Shown here: in pieces, positions 1,932 through 32,003 of the stretch
How positions within the stretch are numbered: position 1 is the first letter of the stretch
Layout of the letters: each line of letters starts with the position of its first letter
Translations under genes and position numbers: made by a program
NCBI GenBank assembly: GCA_019057815.1
Contig: JAHLWR010000003.1
Location: forward strand, 32,001-96,000
From: Candidatus Heimdallarchaeota archaeon
GTDB lineage: Archaea; Asgardarchaeota; Heimdallarchaeia; Heimdallarchaeales; Heimdallarchaeaceae
Reading direction: 5' to 3'
DNA length: 64,000 nucleotides
The notes under the pieces: model-generated
Told to the model about the DNA's origin: nothing
Databases searched by the model: none
The model's input: only the letters and a program-made list of their open reading frames with translations

Positions 1932-3740
1932 TTAATCAATAATGTTACCTGTAATCTGAGTTTGGTAAAGATTGAAATATTTACCTTTCTTCTGTAGTAA
2001 TTGATCGTGTGTGCCTTCTTCCACAATTTTTCCTTCGTCAATAACAATAATCTTTGATGCACTCTTAATTGTGCTTAATCTGTGTGCAATAATGATTGAT
2101 GTTCGATTTTTTAAAATGTAATCAATTCCTTTTTGTATTAAGGACTCAGTGATTGGATCAATACTTGAAGTGCATTCGTCTAAAATTAAAATTCTAGGGT
2201 CTGCTATTACAGCTCTAGCAAGAGAAATTAATTGTCGTTGACCTAAGCTCAAACGAGAACCACCTTCTCTTACATCAGTTTTGTAGCCTTCTGGCATTTT
2301 TGTAATGTAACTGTGCAAACCAAGAGTCTCACAAACGCTGTAGACCTTTTCATCTTTAGCTTTCTTATTACCAAATTTCAGATTCTCGATAATAGTTCCA
2401 GAGAATAGGAACACATCTTGTGGCACTATAGCAATATTTTTTCTCAAATTCGTTAGTTCTATCTCCTTGATATTATACCCATCAACTAGAAGTTCACCCT
2501 TTGAGACATCATAATACCTAGCGAGAAGTTTAGTGATAGTCGTCTTTCCAGCCCCTGTACGACCAACAAGAGCAATGCTTTGACCAGGTTCTATTACAAG
2601 TTGAATATTATTTAAGATTGGAACATCAATATTATAATTAAAATCTACTGACTTAAATTCAATGTGTCCCTTGATGTTTTCTAATATAATAGGATTCTCA
2701 CAATTTTTGATTTTGACGTCTTCGTCAAGAATCTCAAAAATCCTTTCTCCCGCCGCGAATCCCGATTGAATCAAAGTGTAGAAAGTGAAAAGATTCATTA
2801 TTGGATTGAAGAACATACTCGAGTACATGAGGAAAGCGAAGAGTTCTCCATAAGTAATATCACCAAATTTTAGAGCGTAACCCCCATAAATCAAAATGAT
2901 TGTAGTTCCAATTGCTGCAACAACCTGAATTATTGGCATAAATAATGAAGATATTCCTGCAGCTTCAACATTGGCTGAAAAGGTTTCTTTGTTTAGATCT
3001 CGAAATTTCTGAATATTCTCATCTTCTCTGGAAAGTGTTTTTGTAACTTTTGCACTTTGTATTGTTTCTTGAAGATTAGCTGTGACTTTCGCAATTGCCA
3101 CTCTAGTTCTCCTGTATGCTCCTCTAACTCTGTTTTTAAAAACTATAACGACAATAAAAAGGATTGGGACTACGGTGAAAGTGAATAGAGTCATTTTGGT
3201 GTCATAAGAGAACATTATTCCTATAATCCATCCAAGGCTGAATAAATCTGCAAAAATATCAATTATCCCACTGGTTAAAAGCTCCCCAAGAGCGTCAACA
3301 TCATTAGTTACCTTCGAAATTGTTCTACCAGATTCTGTTTCTGTAAAGTATTCCTGACTCTGAAACTGTAATTTGGAAAATACATCATTTCTAATACGAA
3401 AAATTATTCTTTGACCTAATTTTGCAAACATGATACTTCTGGTAAGAGTAAGTACAAAATTAAGTACTATAAAGAGCAAAAAAAGCCCAGCCATTATAGC
3501 TATTTCGGGTTTAAAACCTATATTGTTTGGTTTGATAAATAAATCGATAATTTTCTGAAGGAGCATTGGAACAAGGGTAGCGAAAATGGAAGTTGCGATT
3601 ACAATGAGTAATAAAGAAATTGCTTCTGGTAGATAGTATCTGAAAAGTCCTAAAACCAACTTGAACAAATCTAAATCAGAATACTTCCTATCTCTCTCTT
3701 CTTCTTCTCGTCTCATTGCGCGAAAAGCATGCCAAGCCAT
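1932..3740 (-). CDS. ABC exporter, fused permease/ATPase (heterodimer subunit)
   Basis: N-terminal TM domain; Walker A GRTGAGKT, signature LSLGQRQ, Walker B ILILDE. Confidence 0.93.
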   Translation of the reverse strand: MAWHAFRAMRREEEERDRKYSDLDLFKLVLGLFRYYLPEAISLLLIVIATSIFATLVPMLLQKIIDLFIKPNNIGFKPEIAIMAGLFLLFIVLNFVLTLTRSIMFAKLGQRIIFRIRNDVFSKLQFQSQEYFTETESGRTISKVTNDVDALGELLTSGIIDIFADLFSLGWIIGIMFSYDTKMTLFTFTVVPILFIVVIVFKNRVRGAYRRTRVAIAKVTANLQETIQSAKVTKTLSREDENIQKFRDLNKETFSANVEAAGISSLFMPIIQVVAAIGTTIILIYGGYALKFGDITYGELFAFLMYSSMFFNPIMNLFTFYTLIQSGFAAGERIFEILDEDVKIKNCENPIILENIKGHIEFKSVDFNYNIDVPILNNIQLVIEPGQSIALVGRTGAGKTTITKLLARYYDVSKGELLVDGYNIKEIELTNLRKNIAIVPQDVFLFSGTIIENLKFGNKKAKDEKVYSVCETLGLHSYITKMPEGYKTDVREGGSRLSLGQRQLISLARAVIADPRILILDECTSSIDPITESLIQKGIDYILKNRTSIIIAHRLSTIKSASKIIVIDEGKIVEEGTHDQLLQKKGKYFNLYQTQITGNIID

Positions 3741-5557
3741 TAATATTCCTCCTTATGAATATCTTCTTTTTCTATTAGTGTAACTTTCTGGTTATCGTAA
3801 GATTCTGCAAGCGTGGCGTAAATATCTTGATAAAGACCTTTTTGATTTATTAAATCATCATGATTTCCATCTTGTATTATTTCTCCTTCATCAAAAACAA
3901 GTATTCTATCAGCATATTTTACAGAAGAAATTCTTTGACTGATTATTATCGTTGTTCTCCCTTTACTCAAAATATCAAGTGATTCTTGTATCAGAGCTTC
4001 AGTTTCTGCGTCAACAGAAGCAGTACTATCATCAAAAATAAGAAGAGATGGGTCTGTTAGAAGTGTTCGAGCAATGCTAATTCGTTGTTTTTGTCCACCA
4101 GAAAGCGTTATCCCTCTGTCTCCTACTCGAGAATCATAGCCTTCAGGTAATGAAATAATGAAATCATGAATGTTAGCTGTTCTTGCAGCTTTTTCTATTT
4201 CTTCATCTGATGCGTTAGGTTTTCCAAATGCAATATTTTCTTTCATAGAATCATTGAATAAGAAGGTATCTTGTAATACTAAGCCAATTTGTTTTCTTAG
4301 AGGTTTTAATTGGTAGTTTTTAATATTAATTCCATCAATTTTAATTTCACCTTGAATAGGATCATAAAATCGTTGCAATAGACTTACAAACGAACTTTTT
4401 CCACTTCCTGTACCTCCCATGAGAACAATTTTCTGTCCTGATGGTATAACAATACATATATTTCTCAATATTGGATTATTTTTCTCATATTCAAACCAAA
4501 CATTCTCATAGTTAATTTTACCTTGTAATTTAGGTGGAATAATAGCATCGGGGTCTTCTTGGATTTCTCTTTTAGCAGAAAGAAGTTCCATTAAACGATC
4601 TCCTGAAGCTAGAGCTCTTTGGACAACTCCAATTACCATAGTGAGTTGTCTAGTTGGCATAGGTAAAATCATTAAATAAAAAATAAAAGAAAGAAAAACA
4701 CCAAGTTTCATTGTGTTCTCTGCGACTGCAAAACCACCTAGAAACAACACTAGTGATGTTCCTAAACCGATAAGGAGAGTCATCGTTCCAAAATAAATAG
4801 ATCGATAAACTTGAGCCTTTATTCTTAAATTCATGTATTTTTCGTTTTCTGATGTAAATTTCTCAATTTCATTTTCTTCTTGAGCAAATCCTCTAACAAC
4901 ATGTATTCCTGTAACATTTTCCTGCAAAACAGACGTAACAACCCCAAACTGCGTCCTAGACTGATAAAATATTGGTCTTACTTTGTTGGAAAACCAAAAG
5001 ACTAACCAAATAAAAACTGGAAAGAATCCTACCATTATTAACCCTAATTTCCAGCTCATCACAATCATTGCTGTATAACTACCAACAAATAGGATAACAC
5101 CATTGAGAAGAAGGCGAAGAGTAAATGATATGAAACTAGAAATAGCGTTCAGATCAGTTGTTACTCTAGTCATGATTTGCCCAGTACTTTCCTCATCATA
5201 ATATTCCATTGTCAACTGTTGAAGAAGTTCATAGATATCGTCTCGAAGTTCTAAAGTGATTTTTTGGGCTAATAACGCGGCATAATAACGACTAATAAAT
5301 TGCAACAAACCCGCTATAATTGCAACAAGTAGGACACTTAACCCAAGAATCCATAATAAAAACAGATTTCCTTTAGGGATTGCATCGTCGACTATATATC
5401 TGATTAATTGCGGAGTAACAAGACCTATAAGTGCTGCTACAAATGAAACAACTGATACAAATAGTAAAAATAGTGGTCGTTTGAGTAGATACGGTTTAAG
5501 TATTCTAAAGATTTCTTTAGCTGAATGAATCCGTTCACGATTATCAAGCCAAGACAT
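3740..5557 (-). CDS. ABC exporter, fused permease/ATPase (heterodimer subunit with non-canonical Walker B)
   Basis: GGTGSGKS, LSGGQKQR, Walker B DD instead of DE and SQR instead of AHR, as in TM287/288-type heterodimers; stop overlaps partner start. Confidence 0.92.
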   Translation of the reverse strand: MSWLDNRERIHSAKEIFRILKPYLLKRPLFLLFVSVVSFVAALIGLVTPQLIRYIVDDAIPKGNLFLLWILGLSVLLVAIIAGLLQFISRYYAALLAQKITLELRDDIYELLQQLTMEYYDEESTGQIMTRVTTDLNAISSFISFTLRLLLNGVILFVGSYTAMIVMSWKLGLIMVGFFPVFIWLVFWFSNKVRPIFYQSRTQFGVVTSVLQENVTGIHVVRGFAQEENEIEKFTSENEKYMNLRIKAQVYRSIYFGTMTLLIGLGTSLVLFLGGFAVAENTMKLGVFLSFIFYLMILPMPTRQLTMVIGVVQRALASGDRLMELLSAKREIQEDPDAIIPPKLQGKINYENVWFEYEKNNPILRNICIVIPSGQKIVLMGGTGSGKSSFVSLLQRFYDPIQGEIKIDGINIKNYQLKPLRKQIGLVLQDTFLFNDSMKENIAFGKPNASDEEIEKAARTANIHDFIISLPEGYDSRVGDRGITLSGGQKQRISIARTLLTDPSLLIFDDSTASVDAETEALIQESLDILSKGRTTIIISQRISSVKYADRILVFDEGEIIQDGNHDDLINQKGLYQDIYATLAESYDNQKVTLIEKEDIHKEEY

Positions 5558-5682: not shown

Positions 5683-5690
5683 TTTATAAA
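5683..5690 (+). promoter_or_regulatory. candidate TATA box for the surface-protein pair
   Basis: TTTATAAA about 47 bp upstream of ATG 5737; GAGG SD-like sequence before the start. Confidence 0.4.
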
Positions 5691-5736
5691 TGTCAAGATA
5701 GAGGAAGTTTTAAGATACAGATATTGAGGAAACAGC

Positions 5737-6549
5737 ATGAAACATTTCAGAGTACTTGAATTAATTTTAATTTTGATGCTTTTAATGGGAACTTTAGGAT
5801 TTAATACAACATTCGCAGACACAGATGAAGAAGAAATTGATTGGGGGTATACTGGATTAATTAAAACTCAATCAGACAGATTAAAATTAGAAAGTAGTTA
5901 CGATCCATATTGTATACAACTACATCTTTTCTTATTGAATGATACTGAAGAAGAAGAACCAACAATACGTCTAGTAGCAATATATGGCATTCGACCAATT
6001 TGGAATGCTCCTCTCTACTCTGAAAATTTTGATATTACAAGTGCAGGTGCGATATATAAATTCAAACTTCATGCTGATAAAGGAGTTACTTGGACTAATA
6101 TCACAACTTTTGATGTAAATAACACTGAATACAATCCTGATATTGCTCTTTTTATAGAGATAATTCGAATTAGATTATATAAGCATCCTGAATTTTTTGG
6201 TGGGTCAGAAGAAACTATGACTGCAAATTTAACACAAACAATTCATTTAGCAAATCTTACCACAAATGTAGGCGAAGTTGGATTGTGGGAGCAAGTTAGA
6301 AAAGATGGAACAATTATACGAGGAACATTCCATACTTACGGCTATGAAGAACCATTATATGAGGATGAGGAAATCGGTTATAAATGGCCTGATTATAATA
6401 TAACAATTGCCACTGATTTATATCGTTCGTCACTTCCACGTATTCATTCATTTAGAGTAGCATTTCCTTTCCTTTCCTTTTCTTTCGCACTAGGAACAGC
6501 AGCAATATTAATTACACTATTTTCTAACATCAGGAGAAGAAAAAGATGA
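5737..6549 (+). CDS. secreted/membrane-anchored hypothetical protein (paralogue 1)
   Basis: signal peptide, acidic N-terminus, several NxT sequons, C-terminal TM helix plus RRRKR tail. Confidence 0.8.
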   Translation: MKHFRVLELILILMLLMGTLGFNTTFADTDEEEIDWGYTGLIKTQSDRLKLESSYDPYCIQLHLFLLNDTEEEEPTIRLVAIYGIRPIWNAPLYSENFDITSAGAIYKFKLHADKGVTWTNITTFDVNNTEYNPDIALFIEIIRIRLYKHPEFFGGSEETMTANLTQTIHLANLTTNVGEVGLWEQVRKDGTIIRGTFHTYGYEEPLYEDEEIGYKWPDYNITIATDLYRSSLPRIHSFRVAFPFLSFSFALGTAAILITLFSNIRRRKR

Positions 6550-7313
6550 AAAAGCAATACCTATACCTTATTACACTTCTTTCTGTAATTTTAGTTGTTT
6601 CCACATCATTTTGCAGTATTTTACCTGTAAATGCAGCTGAAGAAGAAGAAGAAGAATGGGACTTTACTGGAGAAATCAGTATTGATAGTGACATTTTTTA
6701 TAGAGCAATGTATAATCCAATAGAGGACGGAGGTCTAAACGAAACAATTAATGGATATGAAAGACCTGTTATTTTCGTTAAAATCATAGGTTTAGATACT
6801 GATGCTAACGCAAAAATGGATATGTATATTGGGTTATATGGTATAATTACTTACGATGTTGATCATCTGGGATATGAAGAAAATACAGATTTGTTCATTA
6901 TAATAATGGGTACAACATGGAAATTAAGAATCCCTGAAGAATCACCACTTCACTGGGAAGTTCTTTACTACCCAAATCCAGTGTATATGGAAATAAATCC
7001 TAAAAGAAAAATTCCAATCATGTTCATTAATTTGACTAAAAACGTAGGTGTTAATCTAGAATACCAAATAGAGACTGGGAAAACTGCAGAAATTGGCAAT
7101 TTTACAACATTTGGATCAGGAAACCCACTACATCCCGATGTCCCCGCTTTTCCAGAATACAATACCACTGTTGCTCTATATACTGACACAATTCTTATCG
7201 GTGAATATACAAATACAGGATTCTTTGATAGTACATTGAGTTTTATAACTATCATATCTCTATCCTTCGTGACTCTCTATATCTGGAGAAAGAAAAGAAA
7301 AGCAGCAAAATAA
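6546..7313 (+). CDS. secreted/membrane-anchored hypothetical protein (paralogue 2)
   Basis: signal peptide, EEEEEEWDFTG, C-terminal TM plus RKKRK; shares EEE.W..TG, NLT.NVG, G.F.T.G...PL and P.YN.T.A with the upstream gene; ATGA overlap. Confidence 0.8.
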   Translation: MKKQYLYLITLLSVILVVSTSFCSILPVNAAEEEEEEWDFTGEISIDSDIFYRAMYNPIEDGGLNETINGYERPVIFVKIIGLDTDANAKMDMYIGLYGIITYDVDHLGYEENTDLFIIIMGTTWKLRIPEESPLHWEVLYYPNPVYMEINPKRKIPIMFINLTKNVGVNLEYQIETGKTAEIGNFTTFGSGNPLHPDVPAFPEYNTTVALYTDTILIGEYTNTGFFDSTLSFITIISLSFVTLYIWRKKRKAAK

Positions 7314-7364
7314 CTTTTCTACCCAAAAAAACTTAATATATTGCAAAGAGCAAGCTACTAATGA

Positions 7365-8105
7365 GTGCTGATGTCAATAATTAACGTTGATATTTATTTA
7401 GCTAGTATATTGCTCACAATAATCAGTTCTCTTATAATACTCACACTCATAATCCCTAATTTCCTTAAGCTTACAAGAAAAACTAAAATATTGATACAAT
7501 CGTTTCTTCTTCTTCTATTTCTTGTAGGTTTAATTTTATTTTCACAAGGAATTAAGGATATGTACTTTTTCCTTGGAGCAGCTTGTGGAATAGGTTTCAT
7601 GTTAAATGGTTTAATACAGAAAAATAATCACAAATATATTTCATTTATCATGTTTTTTATTTCATTTTCATTCGTATTTCTCTCCTTAGGACAGACACTC
7701 CTCTTTTTAATGACGTTAATCTTTTCATATGCTTTATTTATTTCTTTAACTGCTTTTAAATTATTTAAAGAAAGACCTTTAGATATACTAGAGTCAAGCG
7801 AAACGAATTCTATAAAAATCATAAAGTTGGTTTTACTAATTGTTTTTGGGACAATATTCGGATACATTATTAGTATTAATTTCACTGATTTCATTGAAAT
7901 CTTAACGTTAGAGGTCACTGATTTCATTGAAATCTTAACATTAGAGGGACCAATAATCAAACATGTTATCATATATTCCACTTTTTATACTACTGATTTG
8001 TTTATTATTCTAAGCGCATTCTTTCTATTTATATGTGCAACAATTTTTATTGACATTTCTTTAAAAACACGAATGAAAAGGAAGGAAGAGCAATGGTACT
8101 ACTAA
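7365..8105 (+). CDS. divergent NuoJ-like membrane subunit with extra N-terminal TM helices
   Basis: SFVFLSLGQTLLFLMTLIFSYALFISL resembles NuoJ SGVFFSLGAYFAGALEIIVYAGAIMVL; position directly before K-L-M-N-like genes. Confidence 0.6.
   Translation: MLMSIINVDIYLASILLTIISSLIILTLIIPNFLKLTRKTKILIQSFLLLLFLVGLILFSQGIKDMYFFLGAACGIGFMLNGLIQKNNHKYISFIMFFISFSFVFLSLGQTLLFLMTLIFSYALFISLTAFKLFKERPLDILESSETNSIKIIKLVLLIVFGTIFGYIISINFTDFIEILTLEVTDFIEILTLEGPIIKHVIIYSTFYTTDLFIILSAFFLFICATIFIDISLKTRMKRKEEQWYY
7882..7947 (+). repeat. 33-bp tandem duplication (2 copies, 1 mismatch), in frame
   Basis: tcactgatttcattgaaatcttaac[g/a]ttagagg x2, encoding TDFIEILTLE twice. Confidence 0.97.
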
Positions 8106-8371
8106 TTCACCTAATTGCACTAGCTTGCATCAGCTTCATAGTAGGTTTATTTACATTATTATATTCTTCAAACACACTAAAAACCTCTTTTGGTTTTTTA
8201 CTTCTTTACACTTCTGGGATACTTTTTGTATCTAGCTTTTCTATCACTCCACAAATTCTAACGTTCTTCGGTCTTGGATTCTTTACTATATTAATGATAT
8301 TTTACTTCAATTTTCATGATTACTTGATCTTTAGTAATATAAAAAAGGAAAAGGGTGAAACAGATGTTTAA
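8093..8371 (+). CDS. divergent NuoK-like (ND4L) subunit
   Basis: 92 aa, 3 TM; HLIALACISFIVGLFTLLYSSN aligns with NuoK [22 protein letters not shown]; both TM glutamates absent. Confidence 0.7.
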   Translation: MVLLIHLIALACISFIVGLFTLLYSSNTLKTSFGFLLLYTSGILFVSSFSITPQILTFFGLGFFTILMIFYFNFHDYLIFSNIKKEKGETDV

Positions 8372-10337
8372 CTTAGCTTCGCTTCTTGGAATCCAAATAC
8401 TCATTCTTTTTCTTATCCCTTCGTTAAAATGGTTATTATCAAAAATTAGCATTTTAAAGAATGAAAAACCTAAGTTTACTCTTGGAGCTTTTCTTTCAGC
8501 AAACATTGTCTTTACAATTAGTTATTTTATAATCTTTTTAATCAGCTATTTCAAGGGTAACGATCTTATCCTATCGAAATTTGAATGGTTTAAAATAGGT
8601 AACCTTTCCTTTGAAATAGGATTTAATGTTTCATTGTTGCAGATATTGTTTTATTTTGTAATTATGGTATCTGTAAGCATATTCGTAATATATTATGAAC
8701 ATAGATTCCAGTTATGGCAAAGATATTTAGAAGTTAGATTGCCCTATCTTCTGGTAGCTCTAATATTCTTCATTTTCTCTCCAAACATCTTTCAACTTCT
8801 CTTATCTCTGCTAGTGATTGAATCTTTATTAATTGAGGTAACTCGTTCTCGAGATTTGAATAATGAATCTGATACAAATCATAGTATTAGACATACATTA
8901 TTCACATTGATTCTTAGTAATATATTCATTTTTACATCGTCAATACTGTTGCTTTCAAAAATTTTTACATCGTCAATACCGTTGCTTTCAAAAACAATGT
9001 CATTTGATTTTCAGATTATTCAAGCATATTTATCAGCGGAAGAATCCAATCTATATACATCTAATTATTATTCCGTTATTGCCATTCTTTTTTTCATAGG
9101 TATTATCGCTAAAACTTCTCTTTTTCCATTCCATTCATGGAAAAATAAGGTGTGTGCGAGTGAATCTCATGCAAATTTCATATTTTTGATAATTTATTTC
9201 CCTTTAACATTATTTGCTGTATTAAGCACTCCTCTAATTTTTATAATTAAGGTCATTCCCTCGTTTATTACTTGGTATACTATAGTAATTAGTTTAATCC
9301 CAGCACTATTTATTCAGTTTATTCAGGAGGAAAAAGAATTACTCAGATTCGAATCATCTGTTTACATAGGTCTAACTTTTTTCGCTGCGGGAATTGGTAG
9401 CCTAAACTCAGCTTTTCACATGTTACTTGTTTATCCAATTGTTTTTGGCATTATGATTATTTTTTCTTCTCTTAATAATGAAAAACCTTCACAAGTAGAA
9501 AGAACAACAAGAATTAAGTTTTTAGAGACTTTACGGATATCAAACTGGTTTATTGCTTTTATAGTTATTATTGGTGTAGCACCTTTTAATAGTATAATAT
9601 TAGCTGTTTCCCAATCATTGGAAACAACAAAAGTAGCATTTCCTCCTGGCTTATTTGCAATAGGTCTACTACTTTTATCACTATTATTTTCTTCAAATGT
9701 CCATAAGACAAGATCTAAGTTGAAATCACTGAAGCGGATAGATGGCCATCTAGATGTTGTTGTAGTGAGTATTCTATCAACATTACTAATTCTTCTTGCA
9801 TTAATTTTTCCAATATTCAATCTACTTCCACTTTACTCTATTGAGGTAGAAGTTGTACCACATATACTTGCGACAGTTATCTCCCTTGTTATACTTTTTT
9901 TGATTATATTAGTAATGCATGTTATAATACCGAAAAAATTCACTCAACTTACTTCAAGAATGACAAAGTTATCGTTGTCCGTTATAAATTTTATAAGAAA
10001 AGTATACTATTTCGATTTTATGTTTAGATTTTTCAAGTGGTTTTACGAAAAGTCAGTAATTCCATTCTTCTTGTGGGTGAACACAAATATTGTTGAAGGT
10101 TTTATCATAGGTTTTCTCTACATGTACATTTCTGTGTTTTTATCTAATCTAGTAACGACAATAGAAATTTTTCTGATTAAAAGCCTATTCCCCGTGGTAA
10201 AACGATTCTTCATAAAATTTTCAGTGTTTTTACGAAGATTCGAAAAAACTACCATAAAAAACCAGATTCTAGTAATTTTCTCGTTTTTAGCATTAATGAT
10301 TTGTATATTTCTTATTATATTATATGTAGGTGAATAA
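8355..10337 (+). CDS. divergent NuoL/MrpA-like antiporter subunit
   Basis: 660 aa; FEWFKIGNLSFEIGF beta-hairpin, AKTSLFPFHSW (cf. GKSAQxPLHxW), C-terminal amphipathic helix with YYFD. Confidence 0.8.
   Translation: MKQMFNLASLLGIQILILFLIPSLKWLLSKISILKNEKPKFTLGAFLSANIVFTISYFIIFLISYFKGNDLILSKFEWFKIGNLSFEIGFNVSLLQILFYFVIMVSVSIFVIYYEHRFQLWQRYLEVRLPYLLVALIFFIFSPNIFQLLLSLLVIESLLIEVTRSRDLNNESDTNHSIRHTLFTLILSNIFIFTSSILLLSKIFTSSIPLLSKTMSFDFQIIQAYLSAEESNLYTSNYYSVIAILFFIGIIAKTSLFPFHSWKNKVCASESHANFIFLIIYFPLTLFAVLSTPLIFIIKVIPSFITWYTIVISLIPALFIQFIQEEKELLRFESSVYIGLTFFAAGIGSLNSAFHMLLVYPIVFGIMIIFSSLNNEKPSQVERTTRIKFLETLRISNWFIAFIVIIGVAPFNSIILAVSQSLETTKVAFPPGLFAIGLLLLSLLFSSNVHKTRSKLKSLKRIDGHLDVVVVSILSTLLILLALIFPIFNLLPLYSIEVEVVPHILATVISLVILFLIILVMHVIIPKKFTQLTSRMTKLSLSVINFIRKVYYFDFMFRFFKWFYEKSVIPFFLWVNTNIVEGFIIGFLYMYISVFLSNLVTTIEIFLIKSLFPVVKRFFIKFSVFLRRFEKTTIKNQILVIFSFLALMICIFLIILYVGE
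8928..8993 (+). repeat. 33-bp tandem duplication (2 copies, 1 mismatch), in frame
   Basis: atttttacatcgtcaatac[t/c]gttgctttcaaaa x2, encoding IFTSSI[L/P]LLSK twice. Confidence 0.97.
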
Positions 10338-11817
10338 TGTGATCGCAGCAACTATAGCAATTCTAATCTTCCTGTTACTTCCCTATCTAAAGGCTTTTTT
10401 CTTCATATTTTATAGAAGAAAAAACATCAGTTTTATCACACTTTTCTTCATTTGTATAGCACAAATTGCTACTTTAACATTTTTATGGTCTTTGTTCATT
10501 ATTTATTTCAATTCAGAATTGATTTCATATGTAATTCCTACCTCTACAAATACAAATTCAGGTTTTGTAATATCTATCAACGCAATGAATTTAATCTTAA
10601 TATCCTCAATTCAAATCGTTATTATTGCTTTCATTTTACAATATAATCCAAAAAGAACCAAGAGCTTTTATGTAAGTTTATTTTTAGCTGAAGCTGGACT
10701 GACTGGTGCTTTAATATCTGCCAATATACTCTTTTTCCTATTTTCGTTGGAAATTCTGCTTATATCTGTCTATTTCTTAATAACTTATAAAAAGAAGGAA
10801 ATGAATATAATATCAACTGGGTATTTTATTTTCTCTCAAGGGGCACTACTTATACTATTTATTACATATATCTATTATTGGTCATTAGCAAGAAATATAA
10901 GTCCTTCAGTTAATTTCTCCAAAGAAAACATCAAACTAGTCTTAAATTATGTAGACGAAATAAAAATTCGACCATCTCTCTATATGTTGGTAACAGGTTG
11001 GTTAATTCTCTTACCCACTTTTCCATTTTATGCTCTGGTTAAAGATAGCGCATCTAAAGGTAACAATATGGGGACATTCATGTTAGTAGGGTGCTTATAT
11101 CCTTCTTTTTACTATTTCTTTTATTATTGGGGTTTTGATTTTCTTCCACTTCTGAAAGAGCATGAACAAGTTAAACTGTACATTTTCATAGTTCAATTTG
11201 TTTCACTATTTCTGTTCCTTTTACTTTCTCTAAAGGAAAGGAGTTTGAAGAAAATTTTCATATATCTGACTTTTATACAAAGTCCTGTCATTTTTTTGGG
11301 CTTTTTTACAGGTACACCAACCGCAATAATTGCAACTTTGTATTATATTCTCTTCTTGCCAATATCGAGAGGTTTAGGTTTTCTTTTCGTTGATGTATTG
11401 GAAACATCGTTTGGAACCACTGATAATGAGAATTTAAAAGGATTATTCAAATATTATCCTGAACTAAGAACTCCAGCTATCATTTCCATTGTTAGTTTCG
11501 TTTTAGTTCCTCTAGTTCCGTTTTTTATCCAGTTACCTATTTTCATTGAATCTATCGTAATAACTGGTCACAATCTTTTTTATCTTCTTTTTGCAATACT
11601 AATATTAATTGCTAATATAGTAAATATTGCTCTGGTTTTCACAAGTATTCAAGATTACTTATCTCACAACATTTCAGATGTAATCATTCAATCCGAGAAA
11701 CTCAGACTAAACAATAAACTTGTTTCTCTCAAAGTAATTGCACTGATTTATATTATTTTGAATATATTTCCATTTATCCTTATAGAGTTGTTAAATAAGT
11801 ATGGAGGTCTTTCATGA
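10330..11817 (+). CDS. divergent NuoM/MrpD-like antiporter subunit
   Basis: 495 aa; NILFFLFSLEILLISVYFLI (TM5 Glu), LPTFPFY, SLKKIFIY, GTTDNENLKGL..YYP. Confidence 0.8.
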   Translation: MNNVIAATIAILIFLLLPYLKAFFFIFYRRKNISFITLFFICIAQIATLTFLWSLFIIYFNSELISYVIPTSTNTNSGFVISINAMNLILISSIQIVIIAFILQYNPKRTKSFYVSLFLAEAGLTGALISANILFFLFSLEILLISVYFLITYKKKEMNIISTGYFIFSQGALLILFITYIYYWSLARNISPSVNFSKENIKLVLNYVDEIKIRPSLYMLVTGWLILLPTFPFYALVKDSASKGNNMGTFMLVGCLYPSFYYFFYYWGFDFLPLLKEHEQVKLYIFIVQFVSLFLFLLLSLKERSLKKIFIYLTFIQSPVIFLGFFTGTPTAIIATLYYILFLPISRGLGFLFVDVLETSFGTTDNENLKGLFKYYPELRTPAIISIVSFVLVPLVPFFIQLPIFIESIVITGHNLFYLLFAILILIANIVNIALVFTSIQDYLSHNISDVIIQSEKLRLNNKLVSLKVIALIYIILNIFPFILIELLNKYGGLS

Positions 11818-13313
11818 GTCACTTTCAAGAAATAATTCTTTACCTTCTGCCTGTTGAGATACTTGTTTTAGGCATTATTATTGTATTGCTCTTTGGATTA
11901 TTTCAAAAAGCATTTTTAACTGTTTTTCCAGTTTATAAGAGTCGAATGAGAATTCTTTATGGATATATTGCTGTTATATTCAATTTAATCTCATTTATTG
12001 CAATGTTCTATATATTGAACCCATTTAATAATCCCAATTTGATATTCTATGAGTTTGATATTTCACCATTTTTCTGCGCTATCTATTCGGTATTTTATGC
12101 TGCAACAACTGTTTTAATATTTCTTTTAATTGTAGAAACAAAGTATAATTCAGAGGAAAGTTACATTGCATTTATTGGAATTTTACTAGTTCAGATCTCA
12201 GGATATTTCATACTAGCTTCCACTTCGTGGATTTTGATTTATTTTGGTTTTTTAGTCCTTTTCATAGGAGTTAATCTTCTTTTGAGATATGTATTCTCTT
12301 TTAAAGAATTAAAAGAAAAGAAATCTCACATTAACTATACATTAATCGGTGGTTTAGCTCTATGTCTCATGTTTTTGGGAATTGCGTTTCAGTATATCGG
12401 TAATGAATCCTTTGAATTGTACATTGCATATGGAAGTCAAGAGATCTGGAATTTTCTTAGTATAGCTTTTATATTCTCATCCCTCTTGATTTTAATTGGT
12501 TGTCCTCCATTTCATTTTTGGTTTTTCAGTATAACGGATAATGAATTTACATCTCTTTCTAACTTACTTCTAATTGTACAAAGAATTCTTCCTATCTCTA
12601 TTCTCTTAAAGTATTCACTTGCAATAAGAAGTGAAGCTTCCGCTTTTTTTATTTTGTTTTTTATAATAATAGGTGGTATCTCTTGTCTATGGGGAGCAAT
12701 TGCATCAATGACCGTTGATAGTATTAGAAAATTGATTCATTATATTAGCTATATCCATTTAGGAATAATGTTTTTGAGTTTCTCAGAGATTTTTTCTGCG
12801 AAAGAAGACCTAGAATTACAGGAAATTCTACAATCTATATCATTTAATATTATTTGGTACGTTATCCTCTTTTCATTAGCATATTCTTCAATTAATGTTA
12901 TTTTTAATCAATACAAAACTGATAAGATTTCTTTATTGAAGGGTCTGGGAAGAAAAGGAGTCTTAAGATTTTCTCTTGTTTTACTCAGTCTATTCTTTCT
13001 TTTTGTCTTTCCACTAACTGAAGTGCTTTTTGCTAGATTTCTTTACTTTCAAATATCATTAACTTTTCAATGGTTTGTTATTATATTTGTCTTGATAATT
13101 ACAATAATACTTTCAAGTGTTTATATTGTACGATATATGAGATTAGCATTTTTAGAACCTCCTGTAACAAGTAAGAAAGCTAAAAATATTGAGATGGGAG
13201 TGAATATGGGATTCTTATTAGCACTTTTCCTTGCTATAGTAACCACGATATTTGCTTTAACAATCTTCGATCTTTGTAAGATAATGGCAGAATCTCTTAC
13301 TCTAAATCTTTAG
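11814..13313 (+). CDS. divergent NuoN-like antiporter subunit
   Basis: 499 aa; LLPVEIL N-terminus, IGCPPFHFW, SCLWGAIASM..SIRKLIHYISYIHLG, LKGLGRK, YIVRYMRLAF. Confidence 0.8.
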   Translation: MSHFQEIILYLLPVEILVLGIIIVLLFGLFQKAFLTVFPVYKSRMRILYGYIAVIFNLISFIAMFYILNPFNNPNLIFYEFDISPFFCAIYSVFYAATTVLIFLLIVETKYNSEESYIAFIGILLVQISGYFILASTSWILIYFGFLVLFIGVNLLLRYVFSFKELKEKKSHINYTLIGGLALCLMFLGIAFQYIGNESFELYIAYGSQEIWNFLSIAFIFSSLLILIGCPPFHFWFFSITDNEFTSLSNLLLIVQRILPISILLKYSLAIRSEASAFFILFFIIIGGISCLWGAIASMTVDSIRKLIHYISYIHLGIMFLSFSEIFSAKEDLELQEILQSISFNIIWYVILFSLAYSSINVIFNQYKTDKISLLKGLGRKGVLRFSLVLLSLFFLFVFPLTEVLFARFLYFQISLTFQWFVIIFVLIITIILSSVYIVRYMRLAFLEPPVTSKKAKNIEMGVNMGFLLALFLAIVTTIFALTIFDLCKIMAESLTLNL

Positions 13314-13351
13314 AAAACAATAACTTTTTTTATCAATATGTTTGAAATTAT

Positions 13352-14332
13352 TTGGTATTAGTGACAGAAACGAAATTTGATTTCTCGAGTGATGTAAAAG
13401 AAATTAATGCATATTTGACTAACTTAAGAAATCATGCTCCTTATGATGATGAAGTTAATAATCTTATATATGCTATACTTTATAAAGGTGGTAAAAGAAT
13501 TCGCCCTTTAATCTGTTTGTTATCATATGAAATGATATCTTCAAAACCCCGAGAAGAGCAACATTTCGCTGCAGCCTGCTCTATAGAAATTTTACATAAC
13601 GCTTCTCTTTTAATTGATGACCTTTTTGATAAAGACATTTATAGAAGAAAAGAAAAATCCTTTTATTTGAAACATTCAACATTTGCTGCTTTATCAGTTT
13701 CCTATGCTATGAGCAGTTTAGCCTTGAGTTTAGCAACTCAGACTCAAATTATGCAAATAGTTGAAGAACTTGTGAATGCAATAAAGAAGCTTTCATCATC
13801 ACTGTTCTTAGAGCAAAAGCTCAGGATTGAAGGAAGGGTGATAACAAAGAAAGAAGCTCTACAGCTTATTGATATGAAAACTTCATGTTTATTTGAAGCT
13901 ACTTCTGTGATTGGTGTTATTCTTGGAACAGCTTCTAAAAAAGACCAAGCAAACATGAAAAAATTTGGAAAGATGTTTGGTAGAGCATTTCAGTTGAGGG
14001 ATGACCTTCTATCTTTCACATCAACAACTGAAGAACAAGGAAAATCTGGTGTAGAGACGGATTTAAGTAATAAAATTCAAACTTATATTGTTCTAGAAGC
14101 AATGGAGAACGTCAACGAAGAGGATAAGGTGATTTTAGAGGATTATTATGTTAATAAAAGGAAATATCATGTAACTCGAATTAAAGAAATAATCACAAAT
14201 TCACCAGCTTTAAGGATAGTACAAAAAAAGATGGAAAATTGTATTCAGGAAGCTATAGCAATATTGCAGGAATTTCCTAGCTCAACATCTAAAGATAAAC
14301 TAATAGCAATAACAAATCTTCTTCAAGTTTAA
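13352..14332 (+). CDS. trans-polyprenyl diphosphate synthase
   Basis: GGKRIRP, first Asp-rich motif DDLFD..RR, KT, FQLRDDLL. Confidence 0.9.
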   Translation: MVLVTETKFDFSSDVKEINAYLTNLRNHAPYDDEVNNLIYAILYKGGKRIRPLICLLSYEMISSKPREEQHFAAACSIEILHNASLLIDDLFDKDIYRRKEKSFYLKHSTFAALSVSYAMSSLALSLATQTQIMQIVEELVNAIKKLSSSLFLEQKLRIEGRVITKKEALQLIDMKTSCLFEATSVIGVILGTASKKDQANMKKFGKMFGRAFQLRDDLLSFTSTTEEQGKSGVETDLSNKIQTYIVLEAMENVNEEDKVILEDYYVNKRKYHVTRIKEIITNSPALRIVQKKMENCIQEAIAILQEFPSSTSKDKLIAITNLLQV

Positions 14333-14348: not shown

Positions 14349-15419
14349 TCATTCTGGTCTTACGCCTTCAATATATTCATTAAACCATTGATTAGCAGTA
14401 TATCTATTGGTTGATATGGGAGGAGCTTTAAATCCATAAGAACTGATTGAAGTCATAGGTCCTCCATGAGCCCTATTTATTGCTAATTTAGTTGCTCTTA
14501 TAACATCTATTAGAGTAGCAGCTCCATTGGGACCATCTAATGTTTCCAATCTCATATCAATTTTCACAGGCATCCCCATAAATCCTTCACCTAATATCCA
14601 AAAGTGACCTATTCTCCTGTTTCCAAGAAACTCTAAATAATCTGAGGTTCCGCTAGCAATGTTTATTTTATTTTGGGTAGCATCTTGAATTGTTCTTTCT
14701 TTTACTTTTCTTTTGTATTGCTTTCGATCATCGTCAAGAGTGTTAAGAGTTTCAAGACCACCAGCAACATCAAGCTGATACGTATCTTTGATAGTTACAC
14801 CTTGTTCTTTAAGTACTTCTAAAAACCCTTTGTGTAGCACTGTACCTCCAGCTAAAGATTGTAAATCGTCTCCAATGAGACACAAATTAGCTTTTTTGAA
14901 TTTCTGAGCCCATTGAGGATTACTAGCTATCAAAGTTGGAGTACAGTTTATAAAAGCTACTTCTGCATCAAGAGCTGCTTGAGCATATGCTTTAACTGCA
15001 AGTTCTGCGCCTGAGGGTAAAGCACAGATTAGAATTTCTGCTTCTGCTTCTTTTAATTTCTTAGCCAAATCCACATGATCTCCCTCTGCTATTTGAATTA
15101 CTTCTCTAAGCGTGTCAGATAAACCATCTAGAACTGGACCTTTACAAACAGAAACGCCATAATTGTCTATTTCTACAAACTTTGGAGTACTATTAATGGG
15201 AGCAAAAATTGCTTCAGTGATATCTTTACCTATTTTAGAAGTATCGACATCAAAAGCAGCAACGATTACAATATCCTTTACTTCATATCCCAAGATAGTA
15301 GGATGAAGTAAAAAATCTTTTTTATTTTCATAAGCTTTTATGTATTCTATGCCTTGTAAAACACCTGAAGCTATGTTTCCTATTCCAGCCAAAGCGATTC
15401 TTATTTCTCTTTCAATCAT
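14349..15419 (-). CDS. myo-inositol-1-phosphate synthase-like paralogue with altered active-site motifs
   Basis: Rossmann GIGNIASG, collinear with the adjacent Ino1 but GDDLQS, LDVAGGLET, DGPNGA. Confidence 0.85.
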   Translation of the reverse strand: MIEREIRIALAGIGNIASGVLQGIEYIKAYENKKDFLLHPTILGYEVKDIVIVAAFDVDTSKIGKDITEAIFAPINSTPKFVEIDNYGVSVCKGPVLDGLSDTLREVIQIAEGDHVDLAKKLKEAEAEILICALPSGAELAVKAYAQAALDAEVAFINCTPTLIASNPQWAQKFKKANLCLIGDDLQSLAGGTVLHKGFLEVLKEQGVTIKDTYQLDVAGGLETLNTLDDDRKQYKRKVKERTIQDATQNKINIASGTSDYLEFLGNRRIGHFWILGEGFMGMPVKIDMRLETLDGPNGAATLIDVIRATKLAINRAHGGPMTSISSYGFKAPPISTNRYTANQWFNEYIEGVRPE

Positions 15420-15429
15420 TTTCTCATCC

Positions 15430-16512
15430 TCAGTTTGTGATATCTCCTCTAATGAATTTCTCTACCAGTTGGAATGCCTCTGAATCTGGTATTTGTTTAG
15501 GAGGATGTTTGAAGAAATAACTGGAAACACCGACTAAAGGTCCTCCTATACCTCTGTCTTTTGCAATCTTCAAAGACCTTATAACATCTATCATAACTCC
15601 CGCGCTATTTGGTGAGTCTTGAACTGATAATTTCAGTTGTATTTTTAGAGGTTGTTCTCCGAAATTTTTACCCTTCAACCATATATAACAGATTTTTTCA
15701 TCGTTTAGAAATGGAACATAGTCACTTGGACCTATTCTTGTAGGAACTTCATAAGGAATCATGCTTGTTACAGCTTCTGTTTTTGATATCCTTTTAGTAG
15801 TTAATCGGTATTCCTTCTTCATATTCTCAAAATCAGTGTTCCCTCCAATGTTTAACTGAAATGTTTCATCCATTTTAATTCCTCGATCATGAGCTAGACT
15901 AACTAGCATTCGATGTAAAATGGTCGCTCCTAATTGTGATTTAATATCATCACCAGCTAATGGTATTTTCTTATCAGTAAATTTCTGTGCCCACTCTGTG
16001 TTAGAAGCGATAAATGCTGGAATACCATTTGCGAAAGCTACATTTGAATCCAAAGCTGCTTGAGCGTACTTTTGGGTAGCTATTTCACTACCAACAGGTA
16101 AAAAATTGATTAATACGTCAGCTTGTGATTCCTTTAACGCGTCTGCGATATTTACCGAGGTTATTTCCTTAGGATCATAACAGTGGAAAGACTCTTTCAT
16201 ATGGGGTGCAACCCCATCATCAATATGTCCTGGTTGAACAGTGACATCCTTATTGGGGACATCTGAAAATTTCGCACAGCAATTGGGTTTAGCCCATATT
16301 GCTTCTGAGATGTCTTTACCTATCTTTTTAGTACTAACCTCAAAAGCTGCAACAACTTCAATATCTGAAATATGATACTCACCGAATTTTACATGCATGA
16401 TACCAGGAACATAGTCACGTGCATCTGCATTTTTATAGTATTCTAAGCCTTGAACTAAAGCTGAAGCACAGTTACCTAACCCAGCTATAGCTATTCGTAC
16501 TTTTTTAGTCAC
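15430..16512 (-). CDS. ino1: myo-inositol-1-phosphate synthase
   Basis: GLGNCASALVQG, GDDIKSQLGAT, QLNIGGNTDF, KRISKT, DSPNSAG, FFKHPP. Confidence 0.95.
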   Translation of the reverse strand: MTKKVRIAIAGLGNCASALVQGLEYYKNADARDYVPGIMHVKFGEYHISDIEVVAAFEVSTKKIGKDISEAIWAKPNCCAKFSDVPNKDVTVQPGHIDDGVAPHMKESFHCYDPKEITSVNIADALKESQADVLINFLPVGSEIATQKYAQAALDSNVAFANGIPAFIASNTEWAQKFTDKKIPLAGDDIKSQLGATILHRMLVSLAHDRGIKMDETFQLNIGGNTDFENMKKEYRLTTKRISKTEAVTSMIPYEVPTRIGPSDYVPFLNDEKICYIWLKGKNFGEQPLKIQLKLSVQDSPNSAGVMIDVIRSLKIAKDRGIGGPLVGVSSYFFKHPPKQIPDSEAFQLVEKFIRGDITN

Positions 16513-31922: not shown

Positions 31923-32003
31923 AAGTAATCCTCTCATTTCTAACAAAAATACTTCAATATCTATTAAAAATATTCCTAGCAATACATATGAGAGCTTAAA
32001 ATC

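Follow-up and report, generated by a model that had tools for sequence, protein, structure and literature searches.

A stretch of 64,000 nucleotides from a Candidatus Heimdallarchaeota archaeon (positions 32,001–96,000 of contig JAHLWR010000003.1, our contig C48, in a genome of 3.7 Mb and 48 contigs; hereafter the window) carries seven co-directional genes between positions 5737 and 13313 of its plus strand. The last five encode membrane proteins that we call J-like, K-like, L-like, M-like and N-like, after the NuoJ, NuoK, NuoL, NuoM and NuoN subunits of the complex I membrane arm whose gene order they follow, and they are preceded by a pair of genes, up1 and up2. An earlier note, made from the letters alone, had described five overlapping, frameshift-free open reading frames (ORFs) at 7365–13313 standing apart from any redox or hydrogenase gene. 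The coordinates proved exact, neighbouring genes overlap at start and stop by 4–17 nt, all five are intact and free of frameshifts, and no nuoA, nuoB, nuoC, nuoD, nuoH, nuoI or hydrogenase gene was found in the cluster or its flanks. We present evidence that the proteins have shed most of the charged relay on which proton pumping depends while their genes remain under selection, and we consider it somewhat better than an even chance (about 55%) that the cluster is a stand-alone, redox-free, non-pumping derivative of a Nuo-type nuoJKLMN arm, serving as a membrane platform.

Homology of the L-, M- and N-like proteins

The assignment of the five proteins to J, K, L, M and N was borne out by profile comparison for the last three. 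Pfam family PF00361 has a cut-off of 21.5 bits, above which the M-like protein scores 36.3 bits and the N-like protein 50 bits; the L-like protein draws nothing from Pfam when searched as a protein and reaches 25.9 bits for the same family in a six-frame search. In NCBIfam the highest-scoring models are NDH_I_M for the M-like protein (63.6 bits, below the cut-off of 263.8) and NDH_I_N for the N-like protein (70.6 bits, below 332.6), and an NCBIfam search with the L-like protein returned no match. Profiles built from orthologues and compared with solved structures find NdhF/NuoL for the L family at 1.7e-21 and Nad2/NuoN for the N family at 1.3e-20, and both rank ahead of MrpD. In hhalign, residues 13–655 of the L family align with residues 2–612 of the NuoL family profile (98.7%, E 1.8e-16), a span that takes in the C-terminal segment corresponding to the lateral helix and last transmembrane (TM) helix of NuoL. 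These matches identify the three proteins as true but extremely divergent relatives of NuoL, NuoM and NuoN. A word-indexed protein search with the N-like protein alone retrieved only a near-identical copy, and a related-locus search with that protein found no relative.

Loss of the charged relay

Charged residues were mapped with MAFFT and hhalign against E. coli NuoL, NuoM and NuoN (NC_000913.3) and against this genome's own canonical copies (Table 1). The charged axis, made up of the TM5 Glu, the TM7 Lys, the TM8 Lys/His and the TM12 Lys/Glu, is incomplete in all three proteins, and the orthologues share the losses, with Glu or Lys missing at most positions in all of them. Proper alignment did not restore the axis that the earlier note had judged by eye to be lost. 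The losses that the note listed recur in our alignments, the M-like protein keeping the TM5 Glu as it had said, and two of its other entries need correction. In the L-like protein the TM7 Lys is indeed retained, and a conserved acid stands three residues beyond the position of the TM5 Glu; in the N-like protein the TM5 Glu and TM7 Lys are lost, and a conserved Arg/Lys lies one column from the TM8 Lys. Some of what remains is strictly kept. All seven L orthologues compared have K253, an Asp or Glu at TM5+3 and a Lys or Arg in TM6, despite overall identities of only ~16–29%, and in every N orthologue a TM8 Arg/Lys is found together with the PPFH motif, to which H234 belongs. The description of the arm as dead to proton pumping is accurate insofar as the relay is mostly lost; it may go too far insofar as the acid/Lys/Lys cluster of L and the TM8 base of N remain.

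Table 1. Residues of the window proteins at the relay positions of the antiporter-like subunits
Protein	TM5 Glu	TM6	TM7 Lys	TM7 His	TM8 Lys	TM11	TM12
L-like	L153 (E156 at +3)	R179	K253	H260	P283	F364	V418
M-like	E141 (kept)	G164	L227	Y234	P258	R347	L402
N-like	L147	N174	L227	H234 (kept)	I258 (R257 one column away)	Y349	R408

The J- and K-like subunits

Neither the J-like nor the K-like protein obtained a match in Pfam, NCBIfam or PDB-profile searches, and a direct hhalign comparison of the K-like protein with NuoK gave a probability of 1%. A protein language model places the K-like protein nearer to the known family, with 25 of its 30 nearest clusters in the set carrying PF00420; in the nearest ones (scores 0.93, 0.92 and 0.90) the family is annotated in 18–44% of members. 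NuoK has two membrane-embedded Glu residues, E36 and E72 in E. coli. The canonical NuoK of this genome has E36/E66, unlike the K-like protein, which, as the earlier note had claimed and both the alignment and a charge census confirm, lacks any acidic residue within its membrane helices; its orthologues have Glu only in the loop between TM2 and TM3. This crude census counted charges in membrane segments picked by hydropathy; its noise was too great for L, M and N, and it was used for K only.

A three-chain structure prediction packs the K-like protein on residues 138–200 of the N-like protein, assigned to TM5/TM6 by alignment, and on residues 98–124 of the J-like protein. The ipSAE score is 0.70, against 0.04 for the best control, and of 80 solved complexes 58 attain the mark set for this score, as do 2 of 110 mismatched pairs; contact agreement between runs is at least 69% and the predicted local distance difference test score (pLDDT) of the partners at least 67. 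In the predicted complex TM3 of the K-like protein touches L147 of the N-like protein, the former Glu position, and the location is that of NuoK in published complex I structures. The model thus supports, in silico, a K-like subunit packed between J and N as NuoK is.

For the J-like protein the case is weaker. Residues 64–246 align with NuoJ 1–183 at an hhalign probability of 24%, with two extra N-terminal helices ahead of the aligned part. Its AlphaFold2 model has a pLDDT of 61; in Foldseek, NuoJ/ND6 chains make up 14 of the first 20 matches and recur through the top 50, at E-values of only ~1, and VIA-align of the same model found only generic helical bundles in non-membrane proteins (best Z 9.5). 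In the language model it scores 0.80 against a cluster that has PF00499 in 40% of its members, and the J family amounts to 15 clusters among 1.84 billion representatives. We regard the protein as weakly assigned to the NuoJ type. Public gene calls miss the J-like gene on two metagenome contigs (L077 2176–2838 and L078 7092–7682), where short antisense ORFs are called instead and the plus-strand J-like frame is intact in both.

Distribution and origin

The cluster is present in all five sampled genera of the Heimdallarchaeaceae and was syntenic in 23 of the 24 family genomes first sampled with the N-like protein as query. The gene order in relatives is up1-up2-J-K-L-N-ips-ino1-ino1, where ips is a polyprenyl diphosphate synthase gene and ino1 denotes inositol-1-phosphate synthase genes. 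The set of antiporter-like subunits differs by genus. It comprises L, M and N in the window lineage and L and N in the largest genus, and among 40 relatives no orthologue of the M-like protein above 25% identity was found, so that within this sample the M-like subunit is specific to the window lineage. In Heimdallarchaeum the antiporter domain of L is missing altogether; J, K and N are accompanied there by a 152-residue ORF whose match to L (hhalign 79%, E 1.6e-5) is limited to the last 120 residues at the C-terminus, the part that corresponds to the lateral helix and last TM helix. In Ca. H. aukensis this stub lies at L022:10538–10996, between the K-like and N-like genes, and an acidic repeat, EVEDIK three times over, precedes it.

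Intact Nuo-type J-K-L-M-N sets, 31–38% identical to those of E. coli, occur in sister families and in Ca. H. aukensis. In a tree the N-like sequences form a clade with a Shimodaira–Hasegawa-like approximate likelihood ratio test (SH-aLRT) value of 100 and a stem length of 2.35. This clade groups with Nuo-type NuoN (SH-aLRT 99), adjoins the NuoN of the intact nuoJKLMN operons of sister families (SH-aLRT 86) and is separate from the distal hydrogenase-arm subunit described below; in this tree the N-like clade nests within Nuo-type NuoN. The positions of L and M are unsettled because of their long branches, the end branch of M being 3.6.

Selection and evolutionary rate

The ratio of nonsynonymous to synonymous substitution rates (dN/dS) between close species is 0.21–0.33 for J, 0.08–0.18 for K, 0.18–0.29 for L and 0.13–0.20 for N (M is not present in them), and about 0.10 for the neighbouring ips. 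Two additional strains of the window lineage came from the metagenome contigs L077 and L078, one from ENA and one a Logan assembly, which have the same seven-gene order and M-like proteins 90% and 95% identical to the window copy. Among the resulting three strains dN/dS is 0.56–0.84 for J, 0.15–0.42 for K, 0.22–0.29 for L, 0.13–0.24 for M and 0.14–0.18 for N, and 0.27–0.41 for ips. Because the ratios for L, M and N among the three strains fall at 0.13–0.29, the arm appears not to be decaying, and the comparison shows these three genes to be under purifying selection. J and the up1 ectodomain, taken together, give dN/dS values of 0.34–0.84. The orthologues are not canonical proteins evolving at a dN/dS near 1: they share the losses, and together with the synteny and the purifying selection this supports the view of the earlier note that the complex was repurposed rather than left to random decay.

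Conservation of the genes goes together with fast change in their sequences. Between genera the arm proteins share 25–36% identity, whereas in the same genome pairs the canonical copies share 52–62% (J) and 74–81% (K). Measured in this way, the arm genes diverge far faster than their canonical paralogues.

Redox modules and a canonical arm elsewhere in the genome

The earlier note had proposed searching the genome for a second, canonical membrane arm and for orphan genes of the remaining subunits, and both exist. Six-frame searches of the whole genome found PF00146 (NuoH) on contig C43 only and PF00346 (NuoD) on contigs C43 and C27 only. On C43 (L018 4444–16056, minus strand) lies a second, canonical nuoH-A-J-K-L-N set with B-, C-, D- and I-like genes, next to hypD/E/F. 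It has only two antiporter-like subunits and keeps all relay residues but one, the TM7 Lys position of the distal subunit being occupied by Thr. This set is of the complex-I-like hydrogenase type of Appler et al. (10.1101/2024.07.04.601786).

Contig C27 (L083 7371–9853) carries an orphan nuoB-C-D-I set with no membrane gene alongside, flanked by TldD/PmbA and an M32 peptidase, whose NuoD reads NFGPAHPGSG where the N-terminal NiFe Cys motif would stand. Orthologues of this NuoD are 80–88% identical across genera and are found in ~12 of 31 family genomes, while the arm occurs in nearly all of them at 25–36% identity, so the two are neither co-distributed nor co-evolving. On these grounds of distribution and evolutionary rate the C27 genes were rejected as the partner of the arm.

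The upstream pair up1 and up2

The up1 protein has a signal peptide, a beta-rich ectodomain of ~200 residues with N-x-S/T sequons, a C-terminal TM anchor and a basic tail, and up2 is likewise a secreted, anchored, glycoprotein-like protein. Neither belongs to a Pfam or NCBIfam family. The AlphaFold2 model of up2 (pLDDT 76) did not lead to a fold: Foldseek found nothing for the ectodomain at E <= 0.001, the best VIA-align match was OB-fold-like and below a meaningful level (Z 4.8, root-mean-square deviation 3.5–3.7, 99 residues), and TM-scores against the Atlas were at most 0.33 by query. Members were found in three genera of this archaeal family and nowhere else; in 28 of 30 family genomes the two genes occur, without exception side by side and directly upstream of the arm. 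This adjacency, and only this, suggests up1 and up2 as likely partners of the arm in three of the five genera. In Heimdallarchaeum, up2 (L022:8202–9551 and L023:8246–9595) contains an insertion of ~190 residues with weak PKD/Ig-like matches, which the other genera do not have.

Neighbouring genes and sequence features

Table 2 lists the genes and features of the cluster and its surroundings. Downstream lie ips, a pair of inositol-1-phosphate synthase paralogues and a gene for a sugar epimerase, with an oligo-T tract between the N-like gene and ips. The synthase encoded by ips is syntenic in most relatives and has a second copy on contig C43; it is a conserved downstream neighbour and probably a separate gene outside the complex. 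The two inositol-1-phosphate synthase paralogues are unequally conserved across the family, one at ~84% identity and the other at ~72%, and the neighbouring one is 80–81% identical to the copies of Ca. Heimdallarchaeum endolithica and Ca. H. aukensis. On the other side, and divergent from the cluster, lie two ABC exporter half-transporter genes, which accompany the arm in conserved synteny in the window, in the sister strain L078 and in the two genera without up1 and up2 (G002, G005). A sigma-70 promoter scan gave fewer matches than shuffled sequence, and its model is not applicable to archaea.

Table 2. Genes and features at the locus (window positions)
Feature	Position	Strand	Basis and remarks
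ABC exporter half-transporter gene pair	1932–5557	minus	ABC_membrane + ABC_tran
TATA-like element TTTATAAAT	5684–5692		5' of up1
up1	5737–6549	plus	ORF list; type-I membrane protein, paralogue of up2
up2	6546–7313	plus	ORF list; overlaps up1 by 4 nt (ATGA)
TATA-like element TTAATATATT	7333–7342		within the 51-nt gap between up2 and J-like
J-like	7365–8105	plus	ORF list; polytopic, ~7 hydrophobic segments; likely true start at in-frame ATG, 7371
Tandem duplication in J-like	7882–7947		33 bp (11 codons), in frame, near-perfect
K-like	8093–8371	plus	ORF list; 92 residues, three helices, NuoK size and topology
L-like	8355–10337	plus	ORF list; full-length NuoL homologue
Tandem duplication in L-like	8928–8994		33 bp (11 codons), in frame, near-perfect
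M-like	10330–11817	plus	ORF list; PF00361; third antiporter-like subunit
N-like	11814–13313	plus	ORF list; PF00361; NuoN homologue
Polyprenyl diphosphate synthase (ips)	13352–14332	plus	PF00348
Inositol-1-phosphate synthase paralogue	14349–15419	minus	in tandem with the next
Inositol-1-phosphate synthase paralogue	15430–16512	minus	in tandem with the preceding

The J-like and L-like genes each contain a short tandem duplication that is absent from both sister-strain contigs, L077 and L078. In a metagenome-assembled genome of the same genus (G001), contigs C116, at its start, and C18, at its end, break at or just inside the cluster (L062, L063), so that matches end at window position 6554, past up1, and begin again at 13335; the break could reflect strain heterogeneity or sequence that is hard to assemble.

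Discussion

The five arm proteins resemble the complex I membrane arm in several respects: overlapping genes in the order J-K-L-M-N, PF00361 domains, an L-like protein collinear with NuoL to its C-terminus, an N-like clade placed inside NuoN, NDH_I_M and NDH_I_N as the best models, and a K-like subunit predicted to pack on N and J. They differ from that arm in being encoded without NuoA, NuoH, NuoB, NuoC, NuoD or NuoI, in the loss of most of the Glu/Lys relay, in scores far under the NCBIfam cut-offs, in a number of antiporter-like subunits that ranges from one to three by genus, in the two additional N-terminal helices of the J-like protein and in their faster evolution.

Other members of this superfamily work without a redox module. 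The Mrp (Mnh/Pha) antiporters combine a NuoL-like MrpA bearing a lateral helix, a NuoM/N-like MrpD and a NuoK-like MrpC, and the window arm would be, like them, a stand-alone membrane complex; Mrp differs in keeping its Lys and Glu residues and in having MrpB, MrpE, MrpF and MrpG, and no family of the MrpB/E/F/G type was detected by Pfam or NCBIfam in any of the seven window proteins. Antiporter-like subunits have also been reused with an accessory protein in the DabAB and CupA/NdhD3/NdhF3 modules for CO2 uptake. There the partner is cytoplasmic and carbonic-anhydrase-like and the residues of the proton path are kept, whereas the neighbours in the window, up1 and up2, are extracellular proteins with signal peptides and C-terminal anchors and no family match; no DabA (PF10070) or CupA partner was found beside the antiporter-like genes. 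Another comparison comes from the same organisms, since Heimdallarchaeia have group 4 [NiFe]-hydrogenases of a complex-I-like type whose arms are shortened (Appler et al. 2024, bioRxiv 10.1101/2024.07.04.601786). These share with the window arm a smaller number of antiporter-like subunits than complex I has, and differ from it in keeping NuoH, NuoA, most relay residues and the hydrogenase module. In the window the flanks hold an ABC exporter and lipid-related genes, with neither hydrogenase subunits nor the order H-A-J-K-L-N. The searched text of Appler et al. 2024 (10.1101/2024.07.04.601786) makes no mention of an orphan degenerate arm, and our literature searches found no description of one.

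With no redox partner and with its proton-carrying residues nearly all lost, the degenerate arm has probably been put to a use other than pumping. We propose that its subunits would come together as J-K-N-(M)-L, with the lateral helix of L serving as a strap, and that the assembled membrane complex could run neither the canonical redox-driven proton relay nor a lateral one. The charges that remain would sit at subunit junctions, R408 of N facing E141 of M, and E156, K253 and R179 in L, and for that reason suggest ion pairs with a structural part to play, not a through-path. The arm would then be a rigid membrane platform, a pseudo-pump, with the surface glycoproteins up1 and up2 as its likely partners in three genera. 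A structure-dependent function would also explain why Heimdallarchaeum has kept the C-terminal stub of L, and the junction charges and the persistence of this stub without the pump domain point to such a role and not to pumping. Going further, it is possible, though we would hold this only tentatively, that the whole arm is a pseudo-enzyme complex kept by the Heimdallarchaeaceae for a structural or surface role, such as holding up1 and up2 at the cell surface.

Several observations weigh against the platform. The loss of canonical residues may not entail the loss of transport, as the L-like protein keeps an invariant Lys, an acid and a second base and the N-like protein a TM8 base and a His, from which a partial or novel path is conceivable. 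The scaffold role itself is inferred. The assignment of the J-like protein is weak, and the K-N-J prediction, which draws on shallow alignments of our own, may pass through likeness to solved complex I. As for up1 and up2, searches turned up neither in G002 and G005, two of the five genera, and a TATA-like element separates up2 from the J-like gene, so they need not be subunits.

The most serious competitor to the platform, to which we would assign roughly the odds of an outside candidate, is that the arm still transports ions, as an Mrp-like secondary antiporter or a passive channel for cations or protons. The path it would use in place of the canonical relay would run through E/D156, K253, K/R179 and H260 of L, the TM8 Arg/Lys of N and polar residues specific to each lineage. 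That K253 persists in seven of seven L orthologues, along with an acid at TM5+3 and a base in TM6, across such low identities fits this proposal, as do the TM8 base and H234 in all N orthologues and the purifying selection on L, M and N, and Mrp itself is an established precedent for function without a redox module. The path is, however, interrupted: L lacks the TM12 Lys/Glu, the TM11 His/Lys and the TM8 Lys, N lacks the TM5 Glu and TM7 Lys, and K lacks its membrane Glu, and with relay residues missing in all three there is no continuous charged route. Moreover, Heimdallarchaeum does without the entire antiporter domain of L, the number of antiporter-like subunits ranges from one to three, and families of the MrpE/F/G type went undetected in Pfam and NCBIfam.

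We think it improbable that the arm instead serves as an alternative distal arm, docking on the C27 nuoB-C-D-I module or on the C43 complex-I-like hydrogenase. In favour of this, the former has no membrane genes beside it and the latter, in its canonical H-A-J-K-L-N arm, only two antiporter-like subunits. The genome, however, has a single NuoH, which lies inside the C43 operon; the window arm brings its own J and K; and the C27-type NuoD, highly conserved in a minority of genomes, matches the near-universal and fast-diverging arm in neither distribution nor rate.

That the genes are a functionless, decaying relic of a lost complex I, open by chance, is very unlikely and has been largely refuted here, for although very fast divergence, the J dN/dS of 0.56–0.84 in the window lineage, the in-frame tandem duplications in J and L and the loss of subunits in some genera would suit it, over 30 genomes of five genera, and three strains of the window lineage, carry all the genes intact, dN/dS for L, M and N is equal to or below that of the neighbouring polyprenyl synthase, and the PPFH and K253 motifs are invariant.

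To our knowledge the subunits of complex I that resemble antiporters are normally among the most conserved of membrane proteins, and every current model of pumping is built around their Glu/Lys relay. The present case is a natural arm from which the relay, the redox module and even entire subunits have gone, and which is nevertheless under selection. It offers a ready-made control for roles of the fold besides pumping, among them assembly, clamping by the lateral helix and the binding of membrane or partner proteins. Genes of this kind are missed by public gene calls and family models, as the J-like gene, uncalled in two assemblies, illustrates. The arm exemplifies how Asgard archaea reuse respiratory machinery in modules, and if it is indeed a pseudo-enzyme platform, it would represent a use of complex I machinery without described precedent, in close relatives of the ancestor of eukaryotes.

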